Positions 7,402 through 22,714 of a DNA stretch of 40,875 nucleotides are shown here, piece by piece. Where the stretch lies: the IMG/VR virus record IMGVR_UViG_2563366845_000003, positions 1 to 40,875 of that record; one strand, given 5' to 3'. Position numbers and translations under genes: made by a program. Origin of the DNA: a virus. Its lineage: Duplodnaviria > Heunggongvirae > Uroviricota > Caudoviricetes. Numbering within the stretch: the stretch's first letter is position 1; every line of letters begins with the position of its first letter. The notes below the pieces were generated by a model, which ran no database searches, was not told the DNA's origin, and worked only from the letters and a program-made list of their open reading frames with translations.

Positions 7402-7520
7402 AACGCCTCCAGTTGTTTCTTTGCTGCTCTGATTAATTGTTTAACTCGGCGTGATAATTCAGATTCGTGCGGGTAGAAAGCGGACATGACGCCGCTACCC
7501 GCGAGCTGAAAGTGCATCAT
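7386..7520 (-). CDS. cIII: CIII-like protein (FtsH inhibitor that stabilises CII)
   Basis: 44 aa MMHFQLAGSGVMSAFYPHESELSRRVKQLIRAAKKQLEALCAMK; resembles the lambda CIII core (AGWPVAGCPSESLLERITRKLRDGW); GGAG Shine-Dalgarno; the track ORF 7386..7625 is an upstream over-extension. Confidence 0.55.
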   Translation of the reverse strand: MMHFQLAGSGVMSAFYPHESELSRRVKQLIRAAKKQLEALCAMK

Positions 7521-7584
7521 GGGTAACTCCTTATATTTGATTGCATAACGAAAACGCCTCGAGTGAAGCGTTATTGGTATGCAT

Positions 7585-7610
7585 ATAAAAAAGCCCTCAC
7601 ATTGGAGGGC
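7585..7610 (-). terminator. Intrinsic terminator on the minus strand, about 65 nt upstream of cIII
   Basis: Minus-strand hairpin GCCCTC-caatgt-GAGGGC followed by TTTTTTAT. Confidence 0.6.
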
Positions 7611-7673
7611 AAAGAAGATTTCCAATAATCAGAACAAGTCGGCTCCTGTTTAGTTACGAGCGACATTGCTCCG

Positions 7674-7700
7674 TGTATTCACTCGTTGGAATGAATACAC
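7674..7700. repeat. Perfect 9 bp inverted repeat with 9 bp spacer (GTGTATTCA-N9-TGAATACAC)
   Basis: Read directly; lies in the non-coding stretch between the two leftward terminators. Confidence 0.6.
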
Positions 7701-7728
7701 AGTGCAGTGTTTATTCTGTTGTTAGTGC

Positions 7729-7754
7729 CAAAAATAAAGGCCGGCTATGCGGCC
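7729..7754 (-). terminator. Intrinsic terminator (tL-like) at the 3' end of the accessory gene
   Basis: Minus-strand GC-only 5 bp stem GGCCG-catagc-CGGCC followed by TTTATTTTTGG; overlaps the stop codon at 7745..7747. Confidence 0.55.
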
Positions 7755-8368
7755 TCGGAAGGAAGTCCAATCATCTTATTCAAATCTTCTACCCGTAAAG
7801 CAGGAAGTGCTGTACTTGCTTTATCTGCTTCTTTTGGTAGCAACTCTTTGCTTTCAGGCCAAACTTCAATAAGTCGCTTAACTGTTGTGACTGAGTTCAA
7901 AGCAGCCCATACATTTGATTTGATATCCTTTTTCTTGACTTCAAGTTTTTGTTGCAATGCGCAGATTTCATCAAACCTTTTTGTTATTTCGTGTTCTGCG
8001 TCAAACATGCATTTATCTTTTTCTGGGGTGGGGAGCAATATATCTTCACCGTTGCCGTCTTTTCCGTATGAATGCCAGCCAACTCTTCTGCCAGATACAG
8101 TCAGATAAATTGATGTAGAACGAACATCGTATGAGTAAAATGAACATCCCAGTTTTTTAAGTTCTTCACTTATAGCTACTAACTTGGATGATAACTGATC
8201 CACTTCCTCAGTTTTCTTTTTACCGCCAAACGCAATAACTCTGGCGTCAAGTGCAAGCTGGTTCTTTAACTTTGTTACTTCTTCAAGTTCAGTGAAAACC
8301 CCAGACTTAATTAAAGCGTTACGAGCGATTTCCTCTTTCATTCTCGTAGTTAAGCGGATTGATGACAT
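7745..8368 (-). CDS. Hypothetical accessory protein (207 aa, hydrophilic, Lys/Glu-rich, coiled-coil-like); function unknown
   Basis: ATG at 8366..8368 (MSSIRLTTRMKEEIARNALIKS) with GAGAGGAA Shine-Dalgarno; the track ORF begins upstream at a TTG; followed by its own terminator; occupies the lambda ral/sieB/ea10 position. Confidence 0.7.
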   Translation of the reverse strand: MSSIRLTTRMKEEIARNALIKSGVFTELEEVTKLKNQLALDARVIAFGGKKKTEEVDQLSSKLVAISEELKKLGCSFYSYDVRSTSIYLTVSGRRVGWHSYGKDGNGEDILLPTPEKDKCMFDAEHEITKRFDEICALQQKLEVKKKDIKSNVWAALNSVTTVKRLIEVWPESKELLPKEADKASTALPALRVEDLNKMIGLPSEAA

Positions 8369-8504
8369 ATTAATTCCTCTCAAATAAGTGGTTTGCTGCC
8401 TAATTTCATTTTCTGGCGACCAACACAAGTCACACCCATTTCACTGCGTGGCTTGCGGTAGTAAATAGGGTTATTTATGTCATTAAAAACCAGCATGAGC
8501 GTGG

Positions 8505-9447: not shown

Positions 9448-10107
9448 TTAACTAAATGTCTCTTCAGGCCACTGGCTGGCGATAACTTTCCCTACTACGG
9501 AACAGCTATCATTGCATGGGATCATTGGATATTGCGGGTTTAGTGGTTGTAGGAACACCTGACCGCTATCCCTGATCAGTTTCTTGAAGGTAAACTCGTC
9601 ACCGCCAAGTCTGGCTATGCAGAAATCTCCTGGCTCAACAGCCTGCTCAGGGTCAACGAGAATTAACATTCCGTCAGGAAAGCTTGGCTTGGATCCTGTT
9701 GGTGCGGTCATGGAATTACCTTCAACTTCAAGCCAAAACGCACAATCACTGGCTTTTTTGGTTGTGCTGACCCATCTCTCCGCATCACCTTTGGTAAAGG
9801 TTCTAAGCTCAGGCGAGAACATCCCGGCCTGAACATGAGAAAAAACAGGGTACTCATATTGTTTTTTAACGGGGGCAGATGAGTATTCGCCAACAGGTGA
9901 AAATGTACCGTCGTGGTTGAATGAGACGTTATCAATACCAAGGTATTTAAACACCACACCAATCTCGTCAAGAGATGGATGACGAGATCCGCGCAACCAG
10001 TGACCAATTCCACCCTGCGTCATACCAAGCTCTTCAGCTAACTTCTCTTGAGTTATGCCGAGCTCTTTCATTCTGGATCTAGCCAGTTCATACCATTTCA
10101 TTTTCAT
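9448..10107 (-). CDS. cI: CI-type prophage repressor (HTH N-terminal domain plus lambda-like S24 LexA-type autopeptidase C-terminal domain)
   Basis: C-terminal 130 aa nearly identical to lambda CI ([38 protein letters not shown] ... QWPEETF); N-terminal DNA-binding domain is different; ATG 10105..10107 with AAGGA Shine-Dalgarno; the track ORF over-extends to 10182. Confidence 0.85.
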
Positions 10108-10163
10108 ATCCTTATTATTACGCTCTGTACTAAAACCATCCATGCACAAGATGTATTTTTTGT

Positions 10164-10192
10164 TTGCATTCCAAAAGTACATATCGTATTAT
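10164..10192 (+). promoter_or_regulatory. pR promoter (-35 TTGCAT, 17 bp spacer, -10 TATTAT) with overlapping OR operator-like element AGTACATATCGTATT
   Basis: Hexamers at 10164..10169 and 10187..10192; AGTAC-containing element at 10176..10190 resembles the OL palindrome. Confidence 0.55.
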
Positions 10193-14378: not shown

Positions 14379-14551
14379 GACGACAGCGACGAAGTATCAC
14401 CGACATCATCTGCGAAAACTGCAAATACCTTCCAACGAAGCGCTCCAGAAATAAATGCAAGCCAATCCCAAAAGAATCTGACGTAAAAACATTCAACTAC
14501 ACGGCTCACCTGTGGGATATCCGGTGGCTAAGACATCGTGCGAGGAAATGA
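14375..14551 (+). CDS. ninE: NinE
   Basis: [58 protein letters not shown] matches lambda NinE. Confidence 0.9.
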
Positions 14552-14913
14552 CAATGGATTATTCACAGTTAAGTGATTTTGAAATTAACGTGGCGGTATT
14601 CGAAGCCATTCATAACGGATCACCTGATTACAAAGAAGGTGAGAATGGCGATATGGTGTTTGTCTCATTTGAGGGAGACATTGTAAACGGAGACGCAGTT
14701 GAAGTAGAAGTTGAGCGCGGATCATTTAACCCATGCGTAAACCCAGCAGACGCATGGCCGATTATTGAAAAATACAGGATTAGCATTATCAATCTCGATG
14801 AAGACGAGTGGGGTGCACGCGGTGTGGCCTACTGTAAATCTAAGCGAGCTATACATGAAAATCCCCTCCGCGCCGCCATGATTGTCTTTCTCATGATGCA
14901 GAGAATCCAATAA
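14548..14913 (+). CDS. Nin-region protein (NinX / DUF2591-like), hypothetical
   Basis: 121 aa from ATG 14548 ([36 protein letters not shown]); family name recalled, not verified. Confidence 0.5.
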
Positions 14914-15089
14914 TGCTTAGCCCATCCCAATCCCTTCAATACCAGAAAGAAAGCGTCGAGCGAGCTTTAACGTGCGCTAACTGCGGTCAGAAGCTGCATG
15001 TGCTGGAAGTTCATGTGTGTGAGCACTGCTGCGCAGAACTGATGAGCGATCCGAATAGCTCAATGTACGAGGAAGAAGACGATGAGTGA
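14913..15089 (+). CDS. ninF: NinF
   Basis: 58 aa [50 protein letters not shown] matches lambda NinF; below the ORF-track cut-off. Confidence 0.85.
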   Translation: MLSPSQSLQYQKESVERALTCANCGQKLHVLEVHVCEHCCAELMSDPNSSMYEEEDDE

Positions 15090-15591
15090 TGTTAAAGAAA
15101 AAGATATCCCCGGCTTTGAGGGTATATATAAAGTAACTGAAAATGGAGACATCATTTCATGCCGTAAATCAAAAAAATTATCTCATGGTATTAAACCAGG
15201 AGGATATGCATTTGTCGGTCTGTATCCAGGTGGCGGGAAAAGACCATCATATAAAATGGTTCACAGAATTGTTGCAGAAGTATTTATTGATAACCCAGAT
15301 GGCAAACCGGAAGTTAATCACAAGGATGGAAATAAACTTAATAATAAAGTTGAAAATCTTGAGTGGGTAACGCGAACAGAAAATGCGAAACATGGATTTG
15401 ATTCCGGGTTGCTTGTTCATGGTTTTAATCATCACTTCTGCAAACTAACGCCAGAACAAGTGAAATCAATATATAAATCAAAAGGCAAATACAGAGATAT
15501 AGCCAAAGAATTTGGTGTTTGTGCGCAGACAGTGTGCAACATAAAAAACAAATCAGCGTACCGACGTTTTTTGGAGGGGATTGATGTTTAG
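15082..15591 (+). CDS. HNH homing endonuclease (NUMOD4-like N-terminus plus HNH_3-type nuclease domain)
   Basis: GFEGIYKVTENGDIIS N-terminal motif; HNH-type H/N residues (VNHKDGNKLNNKVENLEWVTRTEN); markedly AT-rich compared with neighbours. Confidence 0.75.
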   Translation: MSDVKEKDIPGFEGIYKVTENGDIISCRKSKKLSHGIKPGGYAFVGLYPGGGKRPSYKMVHRIVAEVFIDNPDGKPEVNHKDGNKLNNKVENLEWVTRTENAKHGFDSGLLVHGFNHHFCKLTPEQVKSIYKSKGKYRDIAKEFGVCAQTVCNIKNKSAYRRFLEGIDV

Positions 15592-15859
15592 AAGCAAAAA
15601 ATGGCTTCAGGCAGTCAGGGATATTGAGTTTTGCGTTCTTTGCGGAAGATACGGAGTTCAGGCCGCTCACAGAAATGAAGGGAAGGGGGTTGGGATTAAA
15701 GTAGATGATTGCCTTACTGCTGCGCTATGTGTTGATTGTCATTCAAGAATTGATAATGGGAGAGATATGAGCAGGGAAGAGCGAAGGGCTGAAATGGATC
15801 GGGCCATTGTGCTTACCCTTAAAAAATTGGTTAACAATGGGAGGGTGTTTGTCCAATGA
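15584..15859 (+). CDS. DUF1364-family protein (YbcO-like putative zinc-binding nuclease)
   Basis: Pattern C-x2-C ... AH ... C-x2-CH-x2-ID shared with E. coli DLP12 YbcO; GGAGGGGA Shine-Dalgarno. Confidence 0.55.
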   Translation: MFRSKKWLQAVRDIEFCVLCGRYGVQAAHRNEGKGVGIKVDDCLTAALCVDCHSRIDNGRDMSREERRAEMDRAIVLTLKKLVNNGRVFVQ

Positions 15860-16218
15860 ACGAATATCAGTTTGTGCTTCCATACCCGCCGTCGGTGAAT
15901 ACCTACTGGCGAAGACGGGGAAGCCAATATTACATAAGCGATAAAGGCCAGAAATACCGAAAAGACGTACAGCAAATCATCTGCCAACTCAAGTTAGACA
16001 TTTTCACCAAATCACGACTCCGCATCAAAGTCATTGCAGACGTTCCAGACTCCCGCCGCCGCGACCTCGATAACATCCTGAAGGGTTTACTCGACTCCCT
16101 TATCCATGCCGGATTTGCGGAAGACGACGAGCAATTCGATGACATTCGCGTAATTCGTGGTGTGAAAGTACCAGGCGGACGGCTTGGAATAAAAATCACT
16201 GAACTGGAGAACGTATGA
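15856..16218 (+). CDS. rusA: RusA-family Holliday junction resolvase
   Basis: LPYPPSVNTYWRRRG ... PDSRRRDLDNILKGLLDSLIHAGFAEDDEQFDDIRV ... GGRLGIKITE; conserved RusA catalytic aspartates and motif. Confidence 0.9.
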   Translation: MNEYQFVLPYPPSVNTYWRRRGSQYYISDKGQKYRKDVQQIICQLKLDIFTKSRLRIKVIADVPDSRRRDLDNILKGLLDSLIHAGFAEDDEQFDDIRVIRGVKVPGGRLGIKITELENV

Positions 16219-16403
16219 ACGCCACAATTCAAACGATACCAGAGCTTCTTATCCAGACACGAGGCAATCAGACCGAAGTGGCAAGGATGCTTTCCTGCGC
16301 AAGAGGAACAGTGCTCAAGTACAACCGAGACAGCAAAGGCGAGCGTCATGTAATAGTTAACGGCGTCCTGATGGTCAAACAGGGAAAGAGGGGAAGACGA
16401 TGA
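16215..16403 (+). CDS. Small hypothetical protein (62 aa), possibly DNA-binding
   Basis: ATG overlaps the rusA stop; basic C-terminus; HTH-like segment TEVARMLSCARGTVLKY. Confidence 0.5.
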   Translation: MNATIQTIPELLIQTRGNQTEVARMLSCARGTVLKYNRDSKGERHVIVNGVLMVKQGKRGRR

Positions 16404-17023
16404 GACTCGAAAGCGTAGCTAAATTTCATTCGCCAAAAAGCCCGATGATGAGCGACTCACCACGGGCTACGGCTTCTGACTCTCTTTCCGGTACTGATGT
16501 GATGGCTGCTATGGGGATGGCGCAATCACAAGCCGGATTCGGAATGGCTGCATTCTGCGGTAAGCATGAACTCAGCCAGAACGACAAACAAAAGGCTATC
16601 AACTATCTGATGCAATTTGCACACAAGGTATCGGGGAAATACCGTGGCGTTGCAAAGCTTGAAGGAAATACTAAGGCAAAGGTACTGCAAGTGCTCGCAA
16701 CATTCGCTTATGCGGATTATTGCCGTAGTGCCGCGACGCCGGGTGCAAGATGCAGAGATTGCCACGGTACAGGTCGTGCGGTTGATATAGCAAAAACAGA
16801 GCAGTGGGGGAGAGTTGTTGAGAAAGAGTGCGGAAGATGCAAAGGCGTTGGCTATTCAAGGATGCCAGCAAGCGCAGCATATCGCGCTGTGACGATGCTA
16901 ATCCCAAACCTTACCCAACCCACCTGGTCACGCACTGTTAAGCCGCTGTATGACGCTCTGGTGGTGCAATGCCACAAAGAAGAGTCAATCGCAGACAGCA
17001 TTTTGAATGCGGTCACACGTTAG
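16400..17023 (+). CDS. Q: Late antiterminator Q (lambda type)
   Basis: 207 aa MRLESVAKFHSPKSPMMSDSPRATASDSLSGTDVMAAMGMAQSQAGFGMAAFCGKHELSQNDKQKAINYLMQF ... essentially identical to lambda Q. Confidence 0.97.
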   Translation: MRLESVAKFHSPKSPMMSDSPRATASDSLSGTDVMAAMGMAQSQAGFGMAAFCGKHELSQNDKQKAINYLMQFAHKVSGKYRGVAKLEGNTKAKVLQVLATFAYADYCRSAATPGARCRDCHGTGRAVDIAKTEQWGRVVEKECGRCKGVGYSRMPASAAYRAVTMLIPNLTQPTWSRTVKPLYDALVVQCHKEESIADSILNAVTR

Positions 17024-20748: not shown

Positions 20749-21237
20749 ATGGCAGCACCAAAGGGCAACCGATTTTGGGAGGCCCGCAGTAGTCATGGGC
20801 GAAATCCTAAATTCGAATCGCCTGAGGCGCTGTGGGCTGCTTGTTGTGAATACTTCGAGTGGGCTGATGATAACCCGCTATGGGAGGGTAAGGTATTTTC
20901 ATATCAGGGAGAAATAATTAAGGCTAATGTCCCTAAGATGCGAGCCATGACTATTTCAGGATTGTGTACCTTCCTTGATATCACCAGGCAAACATGGGGA
21001 ACCTTCCGGTCAATGGAAGGTTTTTCTGACGTCACATCACGAGCGGAAGACATCATCTACGACCAGAAATTCTCTGGCGCAGCCGCTGATCTTCTCAACG
21101 CTAACATCATCGCCCGTGATTTGGGCCTCAAAGAGCAGTCGCAAGTTGAAGACGTGACACCTGATAAGGGAGATCGCGATAAGCGGCGCTCTCGTATCAA
21201 GGAGCTATTCAACCGTGGAACTGGACGCGATTCTTGA
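20749..21237 (+). CDS. Terminase small subunit (P22 gp3-like)
   Basis: 162 aa, same length as P22 gp3; immediately upstream of and overlapping the large terminase gene. Confidence 0.65.
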
Positions 21238-22714
21238 TAACCTGAGCGACGAAGAGCAAATCGAATTGCTCGAGCTACTCGAAGAAGAAGAGAACTACCG
21301 GAACACACACCTGCTATATGAATTTACGCCATACAGCAAACAGCGTGAGTTCATCGACGCCGGGCATGACTATCCAGAGCGCTGTTTTATGGCTGGTAAC
21401 CAGCTTGGTAAGTCATTTACTGGTGCTGCTGAAGTCGCGTTTCACCTTACCGGGCGTTATCCGGGCACAAAAGGCTATCCTGCTGATGGTAAATATGGCG
21501 GTGAGTGGAAAGGTAAGCGTTTCTATGAGCCTGTTGTCTTCTGGATTGGTGGCGAGACAAACGAGACTGTAACCAAAACGACTCAACGCATCCTGTGTGG
21601 TCGTATCGAAGAGAATGGTGAGCCAGGCTACGGTTCCATACCTAAAGAAGACATCATTAGCTGGAAGAAGTCTCCTTTCTTTCCGAACCTTGTTGATCAC
21701 CTTCTGGTTAAGCATCACACGGCTGATGGCGTTGAAGATGGCATTTCAATCTGCTACTTCAAGCCATACTCGCAAGGTCGTGCTCGCTGGCAGGGTGACA
21801 CAATCCACGGCGTGTGGTTTGACGAAGAGCCACCATACAGCATTTATGGTGAAGGCCTTACCCGTACCAACAAATACGGGCAATTCTCAATTCTGACGTT
21901 TACCCCGCTGATGGGGATGTCTGACGTTGTTACCAAGTTCCTGAAGAATCCAAGCAAGTCGCAGAAAGTGGTCAACATGACCATCTACGACGCTGAGCAC
22001 TACACAGACGAACAGAAAGAGCAAATCATCGCATCCTATCCCGAGCATGAGAGAGAGGCGCGTGCTCGCGGTATTCCTACGATGGGTAGCGGTCGAATCT
22101 TCCAGATACCGGAAGAGACGATTAAGTGTCAGCCGTTCGAGTGTCCTGATCACTTCTACGTAATTGGTGGGATGGATTTCGGATGGGATCACCCACAGGC
22201 GCAGGTTCAGCTTTGGTGGGATAAGGACGCAGACACAATCTACGTTTCACGCGTGTGGAAGGCGAAAGAAAAAACAGCTGTTCAGGCATGGGGAGCTGTT
22301 AAATCATGGGCGCATAAAGTGCCAACCGCATGGCCTCATGACGGAAACCAGCACGAGAAGGGCGGCGGTGAGCAGCTCAAAGGGCAGTATGCAGATGCTG
22401 GTTTTATGATGTTGCAGGAGCATGCGACATGGCCTGATGGCGGTAATGCTGTGGAGCCTGGCATCACTGAATTGCGCGACATGATGCTCGATGGTCGCTT
22501 CAAAGTATTCAACACCTGTGAGCCATTCTTTGAGGAGTTCCGCCTCTATCACCGTGATGAAAACGGGAAAATCGTCAAGCTTAACGACGACGTTCTCTCA
22601 GCCGTTCGCTATGCATACATGATGCGCCGCTTCGCCAAAATGATGCGCGACATCAAAAAACCAAAAGAGAAAAAGATACCAGCCCCAATCAGGCCCATCG
22701 CACGGAGAACTTAA
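21215..22714 (+). CDS. Terminase large subunit (P22 gp2-like)
   Basis: 499 aa; GTG start with AAGGAG Shine-Dalgarno; ATPase and nuclease-type motifs; followed directly by the portal gene. Confidence 0.85.

Follow-up and report, generated by a model that had tools for sequence, protein, structure and literature searches.

A probable I-HmuI-type HNH homing endonuclease and a linked divergent YbcO-like gene in the nin region of lambdoid and P22-like phages

The nin region of the virus record IMGVR_UViG_2563366845_000003 (Caudoviricetes), a P22-like E. coli prophage whose complete 40,875 nucleotides (nt) are referred to here as the window, contains an open reading frame (ORF) of 169 amino acids (aa) with an HNH nuclease domain. 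Together with the 91-aa YbcO-like gene downstream of it, which we call allele B, this HNH gene appears to form a young, nearly uniform two-gene cassette between ninF and rusA. We consider it probable that the ORF encodes a free-standing homing endonuclease of the I-HmuI type, which spreads by intronless homing in a mobile unit that includes allele B. The annotation of the gene (RefSeq already names it ‘NUMOD4 motif-containing HNH endonuclease’) and the class of mechanism are known; in the searchable literature we found no description of the two-gene cassette, of its population signature or of its junctions, which appear to derive from YbcO genes of the HK97 gp66 type.

A two-gene cassette between ninF and rusA

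Homology of the window to phages HK97 and mEp043 stops at 15090-15095 and picks up again at the start of rusA at 15856 (96.5%). In all eight HNH-less relatives compared (HK97, mEp043, N7, ECP1, HK140, mEpX2, HK620 and mEp235), ninF is followed by a slot gene, which may be roi, a 213-bp ORF or a 270-bp ORF, then by a gp66-type YbcO gene of 291 bp and by rusA, whereas the window has the order ninF, HNH gene, allele B and rusA instead. The HNH gene and allele B thus take the place of the slot gene and the gp66-type gene together. The first-pass annotation, made from the letters of the window alone, had placed the HNH gene as an insertion between ninF and a YbcO-like gene and had suggested that it was acquired separately. 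The foreign composition of the gene and its sporadic occurrence support a separate acquisition, yet the unit acquired relative to HK97, mEp043, N7 and HK620 is not the ORF alone, and comprises the HNH gene and the YbcO-like gene (Table 1). A simple insertion was rejected as the full account because the non-homologous block relative to HK97-type phages extends to the start of rusA. The HNH gene is also not a mere alternative to roi, since both are present in two of the copies studied (L065 and L066).

Nineteen HNH-positive loci were aligned over window positions 14947-16404, and steps in nucleotide diversity (pi) were located with 60-nt windows. Diversity in the cassette is lower by a factor of 6-10 than in its flanks or in the alternative gp66 allele, with a pi of 0.0046 in the HNH gene and 0.0041 in allele B compared with 0.042 in ninF, 0.026 in rusA, 0.027 in ninH, and 0.036 in gp66 among eight HNH-less phages. 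The same holds at third codon positions (0.010-0.012 in the cassette, 0.058-0.075 in the flanks). Along the alignment, pi falls from 0.059 to 0.008 at about 15067 and climbs up to 0.034 after about 15900. The diversity steps lie at about 15067 and about 15856; the match of the L065 and L066 copies to the window also begins at 15067. Mean distances over rusA-ninH are nearly the same between two HNH-positive loci (0.0245), between two HNH-negative loci (0.0238) and between one of each (0.0253), and most HNH-less phages are nearer to some HNH-positive locus than to any other HNH-less phage. The flank alleles of the two kinds of locus are fully intermixed, and the HNH-positive backbones also differ from one another in the genes found upstream, ninX or others, and in the allele of Q found downstream. 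Because the diversity of the cassette is low and its flanks are intermixed, we read it as a young, nearly uniform haplotype within an older, freely recombining pool of backbones. These two features and the linkage to allele B fit homing, and ordinary recombination plus a sweep could give the same pattern.

Among 5,426 complete Escherichia coli genomes, HNH gene DNA was found in 34; 33 of these copies are full-length, with 98.6-100% identity, and one is truncated. About 970 of the genomes carry the adjoining rusA-ninH flank, and ~96% of the prophages with this shared flank are without the HNH gene. Only two of 50,697 phage records contain it, those of the Lederbergvirus isolates Louie and Dewey. 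IMG/VR holds ~20 contigs with the protein at 97-100% identity, next relatives at 72% and 58%, and all others at or below about 50%. The best relative in GTDB species-representative genomes has 46% identity, with top matches in assemblies of Ignavibacteria, Bacteroidota and Firmicutes, and a protein search recovered a graded enterobacterial subfamily of 58-75% identity in E. coli, Salmonella, Klebsiella aerogenes and Citrobacter. The first-pass annotation would have been contradicted by a gene present at this place in all relatives with no indel signature; most close relatives lack the gene, and the breaks in homology are sharp.

Allele B also occurs widely in enterobacterial prophages as an independent gene, and about 10 sequenced phages carry it without the HNH gene, for example SEN22 (NinF-B-RusA). 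The window-type allele is found in 37 E. coli genomes, 34 of which have the HNH gene directly upstream; in the remaining three, homology to the window starts about 5 nt past the HNH stop codon, and the ninF upstream is a different allele. Like HK97 gp66 and E. coli YbcO (PF07102, DUF1364), allele B is located directly upstream of rusA or Q. It is assigned to the same PHROG as gp66 (phrog_131) and has the C-x2-C ... H ... C-x2-C-H pattern in common with it, but the identity between the two proteins is just 29% over 55 aa, and the match of allele B to Pfam YbcO is below threshold (18.9 vs 29.9 bits), as is its match to DUF968. A PDB sequence search with allele B gave no meaningful relative.

The HNH protein, its gene and the surrounding region

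The first-pass annotation had described a 169-aa protein with a NUMOD4-like N-terminus and an HNH motif, and both domains have Pfam matches above their cut-offs: NUMOD4 at aa 7-48 (E 1.1e-6, 29.2 bits vs 23.4) and HNH_3 (PF13392) at aa 58-102 (E 6.2e-11, 42.2 bits vs 24.8), followed by a weak helix-turn-helix (HTH) match at aa 139-157. The protein also matches phrog_59 (HNH endonuclease) with an E-value of 7.6e-51, and NCBIfam has no family for it or for the allele B protein. A phmmer search against PDB gave I-HmuI of Bacillus phage SPO1 (1U3E) as the sole strong match among solved structures (E 8.9e-19, residues 6-121). An AlphaFold2 model built from 54 homologs has a mean predicted local distance difference test (pLDDT) score of 93.6, and 1u3e_M is again its sole Foldseek match below E 0.001 (E 5.8e-10, probability 1.00, template modelling scores 0.59/0.57). 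Since this alignment spans 164 columns of the 169 aa, the C-terminal helical domain is part of the match. The modeled structure has strands at 77-80 and 93-96 followed by a helix at 98-107 (beta-beta-alpha), and supports a three-part architecture of the I-HmuI type, predicted to consist of an N-terminal NUMOD4 beta region, a beta-beta-alpha-metal core and a C-terminal HTH.

I-HmuI belongs with I-HmuII, I-BasI and I-TwoI to the HNH nicking homing endonucleases. The window protein resembles it in length class (169 vs 174 aa), in domain order (N-terminal beta-strand DNA-binding region, HNH beta-beta-alpha core, C-terminal helices/HTH) and in sequence (29% identity over the 164 aligned columns), and the catalytic His and Asn residues are conserved. 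Residues H75, N87 and N96 of I-HmuI align with H80, N92 and N101, which are invariant in the 54 homologs together with N79 and H104. Because pN, the proportion of nonsynonymous differences, is 0.20 in comparison with a synonymous proportion (pS) of 0.83, which is saturated, between the HNH gene and its 72%-identical relative, the gene appears to be under purifying selection and kept functional. The alignments point to an I-HmuI-type nuclease with intact catalytic residues, whose enzymatic activity itself is a prediction. PADLOC matched the protein to ‘HEase’ homing-endonuclease models only and gave no match for allele B; neither protein matches a defence-system component, and a defence or toxin-antitoxin pair was rejected on these results.

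The I-HmuI gene is inside a group I intron of a DNA polymerase gene, and the enzyme nicks beside the intron insertion site (PMC3428280). The HNH gene of the window, in contrast, is free-standing in a temperate enterobacterial phage, since no intron is present. Rfam families gave no match at E <= 1 over window positions 14500-16300, and the ORF overlaps ORFs on both sides, which leaves no space for a ribozyme. A group I intron, or a DUF1364 gene split into a gp66 remnant as exon 1 and allele B as exon 2, was rejected because there is neither an Rfam match nor non-coding space; the split gene is further ruled out by the N-terminal region of allele B, which is complete and homologous to that of gp66. 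The cassette boundaries lack terminal repeats, whether direct or inverted, and a transposon-like element was rejected on that ground. The proposal of a free-standing homing endonuclease in the first-pass annotation has thus gained support from the I-HmuI homology, the predicted fold and the lack of an intron.

The local gene order is ninB, dam, ninE, ninX, ninF, HNH gene, allele B, rusA, ninH and Q, and the Pfam matches of the neighbours bear out the initial placement of the HNH gene between ninF and a YbcO-like gene (Table 1). The ninF stop codon and the HNH start codon overlap (ATGAGTGA), and a Shine-Dalgarno-like GAGGAAG for the HNH gene is within the 3′ end of ninF. The final 8 nt of the HNH ORF are shared with the start of allele B, whose ATG is at 15584. 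No promoter or terminator was found near the HNH gene.

Table 1. Positions of the cassette, its parts and its flanking genes in the window
Feature	Position	Strand	Basis or remark
ninF, left flank	14913..15089	+	Pfam NinF PF05810, E 1.8e-12
Low-diversity two-gene cassette (HNH gene and allele B), approximate extent	15067..15855	+	Homology breaks and pi steps
HNH endonuclease gene, I-HmuI-like, free-standing	15082..15591	+	ATG start, 169 aa
NUMOD4 beta-strand region of HNH gene	about 15100-15225	+	Pfam
HNH_3 core of HNH gene	15253-15387	+	H80 at 15319-15321, N101 at 15382-15384
C-terminal helical/HTH region of HNH gene	about 15451-15579	+	
Segment lost in degenerate copies (330-bp in-frame deletion)	15243..15572	+	AH19B041 (L008), L074
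GGAGGGG Shine-Dalgarno of allele B, inside HNH 3′ end	15573..15579	+	Sequence read directly
Allele B, 91-aa divergent YbcO/DUF1364/DUF968-like, putative zinc-finger nuclease	15584..15859	+	phrog_131 E 6e-31
rusA, right flank	15856..16218	+	Pfam RusA, E 2.5e-16

The higher AT content that had been noted by eye for the HNH gene was confirmed by windowed G+C (GC) content: the ORF has 36.5% GC compared with a window mean of 47.8% (standard deviation 3.8%, 510-nt windows) and is the lowest-GC 510-nt stretch of the window, the next non-overlapping one having 37.5%. Composition is therefore not uniform; a uniform one had been named at the outset as a result that would speak against a separate acquisition. 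GC at third codon positions (GC3) is 27% in the HNH ORF, in comparison with 48-58% in ninB, dam, ninE, ninF, rusA, ninH and Q and 44% in ninX, and allele B is also somewhat low at 39%. The second most AT-rich stretch of the window is an island at about 7500-8500, with GC down to 37.5%. The island contains an ORF (7745-8428, minus strand) of 227 aa with a full-length Nmad5 domain (PF18757, nucleotide modification associated domain 5; E 5e-71), placed between the early-left genes and a cI-like repressor gene (9448-10182); this ORF is possibly a moron or counter-defence gene. Directly beside the cassette, ninX (PF10765; 14512-14913, plus strand) separates ninE from ninF. In HK97 and Dewey this place is empty, and in Louie it is filled by another gene, of 408 bp, which makes ninX a second presence/absence polymorphism.

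Other HNH genes were observed in related nin regions. In L061 (3441-3947) and L074, a second, unrelated HNH_3 ORF (168 aa, E 1.2e-19) is found inside ninF immediately upstream of the cassette HNH gene, where it takes the place of the acidic C-terminal tail of NinF. Its insertion point corresponds to window positions 15024-15029 and coincides with a palindrome, CTGCGCAG (15029-15036), and its product is 49% identical over 99 aa to that of an HNH_3+AP2 ORF located downstream of Q in AH19B041 (L008:4022-4534). In an E. coli contig (L131:1996-2544), ninB and a 100-aa ORF are separated by the gene for an HNH_3 protein of 182 aa, and L070 (5116-6141) has a classical HNH protein (PF01844) of 341 aa between rusA and Q. 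The nin regions seem to gather several genes of the homing-endonuclease-like HNH kind.

Junctions with gp66-type genes and a candidate homing mechanism

More distant relatives retain the pairing of the HNH gene with allele B. The divergent lambdoid contig L070 has the same order of ninF-like gene, HNH gene, allele B and rusA, and its identity to the window is 72% for HNH and 77% for allele B compared with 37% for NinF, 43% for NinE, 59% for RusA and 36% for Q. An HNH gene followed directly by a 91-aa allele B homolog is also found in E. coli (L130, L131), Salmonella (L132-L134) and K. aerogenes (L135), with identities of the two proteins to the window pair that co-vary (HNH/allele B 73/78, 66/64 and 63/66%). 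The gene upstream of the pair varies (an 81-aa ORF, a 100-aa ORF, a DNA methylase or DUF1367), as does the gene after allele B (RusA or Q). Across genera, the constant partner of the HNH gene appears to be the downstream gene and not ninF. A further HNH homolog of 60% identity, with a gp66-like N-terminal fusion, was observed in a ~60%-GC context in L136 (3540-3902) and L137, where it is followed by a Ref-like RecA-dependent nuclease (PF16786) and not by allele B. The place directly after the HNH gene is always taken by the gene of some small HNH-superfamily nuclease.

The left ends of these relatives preserve traces of a gp66-type gene. In the window, the core homologous to I-HmuI begins with KDIPGFEG and is preceded only by MSDVKE, whose first three codons are the generic overlap with the ninF stop that is also present in mEp043 gp60; no gp66-type 5′ sequence was found in the window. 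Most of the relatives at 58-75% identity begin instead with MANLRKEARGRECQV(R), MSKLTKEARGRDC... or similar; in these proteins the HNH core follows, in an in-frame fusion, the N-terminal part of a gp66-type YbcO protein. The fused part is ~16 codons long, and in L070 and P0005 all 16 of 16 residues are identical to HK97 gp66. A different arrangement is seen in L065 and L066, where ninF is followed by roi, the first 28 nt of a gp66-type gene, ~10 nt resembling the 3′ end of ninF, the HNH gene and allele B. Because of the fused relatives and the L065/L066 junctions, we count at least two independent arrangements in which the opening 10-16 codons of a gp66-type gene border directly on the cassette, which appears to have replaced the body of that gene.

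Some copies of the HNH gene are decayed. AH19B041 and the IMG/VR contig L074 have an identical 330-bp in-frame deletion that removes the HNH core and the HTH; its junction, ...GGGAAAAG joined straight to GGAGGGG..., keeps the Shine-Dalgarno and the start codon of allele B. In L091, the HNH gene is broken after about 15222 by an insertion sequence (IS) element with a transposase HTH_Tnp_1 domain. Such degenerate copies appear to match the expectation of a cycle of invasion and decay. As a separate observation, the best-conserved DNA between the cassettes of the window and L070 is at 15586-15625 and 15749-15790 (86-90% identity in 30-nt windows); the first of these, which covers the HNH stop codon and the start of allele B, may serve in recognition or regulation, or may just be coding sequence that is well conserved.

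In the mechanism that we propose, the HNH gene would have no promoter of its own, and the enzyme would be translated in the lytic cycle from the early-right (PR) transcript, in coupling with ninF upstream and with allele B downstream. A co-resident lambdoid or P22-like genome with the order ninF, slot gene, gp66-type YbcO gene and rusA would be nicked or cut, most likely within the first ~30-70 nt of the gp66-type gene, which is the likely target as judged from the junction positions only. Resection would extend to the shared ninF and rusA sequences, and repair from the HNH-positive genome would copy the block, exchanging the slot gene and gp66 for the HNH gene and allele B. Being unrelated in sequence to the target, allele B would presumably be immune to cleavage, and the outcome would be intronless homing with localized marker exclusion. 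We infer in this scheme the catalytic activity, the nick or double-strand break, the target and the biased inheritance. Phage Huey has ninG/rap at the cassette position and was set aside as an unsuitable recipient.

The scheme has counterparts among known free-standing endonucleases. In T4, the promoterless mobE gene encodes an enzyme that nicks the 5′ region of a neighbouring gene in an endonuclease-less phage, with adjacent DNA carried along in trans homing (PMC2790892). Like mobE, which is found between nrdA and nrdB, the HNH gene of the window is a free-standing HNH gene between conserved genes with no promoter nearby, and the proposed cut in the gp66-type gene with co-transfer of allele B parallels the action of MobE. 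MobE, however, comes from a lytic T-even phage, has another DNA-binding region, and its activity and biased inheritance have been shown experimentally while those of the window protein are predicted. In our case, moreover, the co-transferred neighbour and the putative target are alleles with just 29% identity and not near-identical ones. T4 SegF and SegG cleave the sensitive allele of a relative, which is then replaced as the endonuclease gene is gained, in a process of intronless homing with localized marker exclusion (PMC2988022). They share with the window the placement of the endonuclease gene beside a resistant allele, presumed resistant in the case of allele B, and differ in being GIY-YIG and not HNH enzymes of lytic T-even phages. 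In the P22-like temperate phage epsilon34, gene 31 is a putative HNH homing endonuclease gene, related to those of Gram-positive phages, that is fused in frame behind the N-terminus of eaE (PMC2629481). This parallels the fusions of the gp66 N-terminus to HNH in the relatives described above, although gene 31 is in the early-left operon, involves another host gene and has no linked replacement allele described.

A more specific version of the mechanism is a natural ‘cut-and-replace’ drive, in which the HNH enzyme would target the gp66-type YbcO/DUF1364 gene near codon 16 and allele B would be a diverged, cleavage-immune functional substitute. We put this forward tentatively, as a possibility that is rather doubtful at present.

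Alternative explanations and implications

Several observations weigh against homing by the HNH enzyme. The metal ligand D74 of I-HmuI is replaced by Asn in the window protein (N79), and this Asn is invariant in the subfamily. A strictly empty site with both flanks identical was not found among the loci compared, the three HNH-less allele B loci having another ninF allele. The low diversity of the cassette could come from a recent sweep or from hitch-hiking for other reasons, and the gp66 remnants could derive from a single old recombination event and not from repeated site-specific insertion. The co-divergence of the HNH gene and allele B under purifying selection is also compatible with vertical inheritance in stable linkage or with a joint function. 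Finally, lambdoid nin regions typically swap modules and show breakpoints at gene boundaries even where no endonuclease is involved.

This last point leads to the main rival, ordinary lambdoid mosaicism, an unlikely explanation overall but one that deserves to be taken seriously. The cassette would be one interchangeable nin module, swapped by general or phage-encoded homologous recombination at the ninF and rusA flanks, and the HNH protein would have no part in its spread, being inactive or acting on something unrelated. The variety of genes in the slot after ninF, breakpoints that fall exactly at gene boundaries, and flanks that recombine freely are all in its favour; the diversity boundaries are also sharp and not graded, so that co-conversion tracts are not directly visible. 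What mosaicism leaves unexplained is the 6-10 times lower diversity relative to the flanks and the allelic alternative, the purifying selection on an intact I-HmuI-like nuclease, and the clustering of left junctions in the first 16 codons of gp66-type genes.

The strong purifying selection would also be expected of a domesticated nuclease with a role that benefits the phage, acting with allele B and RusA in recombination, replication restart, or the processing of phage or host DNA. The placement of the gene among recombination genes (ninB, rusA) is compatible with such a role, and so is the fact that it has stayed next to allele B, and diverged along with it, in E. coli, Salmonella and Klebsiella. 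The HNH gene is, however, dispensable, with allele B alone in many phages and prophages and ~96% of flank-sharing prophages lacking it; deleted or IS-disrupted copies persist, and the composition of the gene is still foreign, all of which makes domestication improbable.

An inter-phage competition nuclease would cut rival or resident lambdoid genomes to exclude them, with gene conversion as a by-product. It draws on the same evidence as homing, from which the sequence data do not separate it, and marker exclusion is a known effect of homing endonucleases in phages of the T-even and SPO1/SP82 (HMU) types (PMC2988022). With expression confined to the lytic early operon, as the gene position and the lack of a nearby promoter suggest, such a nuclease would give no protection in a lysogen, and we regard exclusion as its main function as quite improbable.

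The virion module of the window is P22-like, with a portal ORF of 721 aa and a coat ORF of 432 aa, sizes that we take to fit those of the P22 genes; the closest phages are Lederbergvirus, and the P22-like group uses headful packaging. A packaging-associated HNH protein like HK97 gp74, aiding terminase cleavage, is hardly credible and was rejected on position and architecture, since the gene belongs to the nin region, with more than 5 kb between it and the terminase ORFs downstream (20749-22714), and has a NUMOD4-HNH_3-HTH arrangement that is not of the gp74 type, even though in cos phages terminase is commonly partnered by an HNH protein (PMC3592412).

Intronless homing by an I-HmuI-type endonuclease thus remains our favoured reading, and its interest depends on how far it holds. 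If it does not, the locus is an annotated ‘NUMOD4 motif-containing HNH endonuclease’ gene carried in a mosaic module. Homing endonucleases have received much study in lytic phages of the T-even and SPO1 types, whereas to our knowledge their share in the mosaicism of temperate lambdoid phages is hardly documented. The locus offers a tractable case, with a delimited two-gene cassette, a signature of recent spread and an explicit candidate target at the 5′ end of gp66-type genes, and both the HNH-positive phages (Louie and Dewey) and the gp66-type phages (N7, HK620, HK97 and mEp043) were isolated on E. coli. If the homing reading is true, some of the exchange of nin-region modules would be driven by an endonuclease and would not be passive, and the protein would be a new sequence-specific nicking or cleaving enzyme. 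If the more tentative cut-and-replace drive is also true, destruction of the target would cost nothing, which would provide a gene-level alternative to intron or intein splicing, and the cassette would be a natural analogue of synthetic cleave-and-rescue drives in temperate lambdoid and P22-like phages of several enterobacterial genera.

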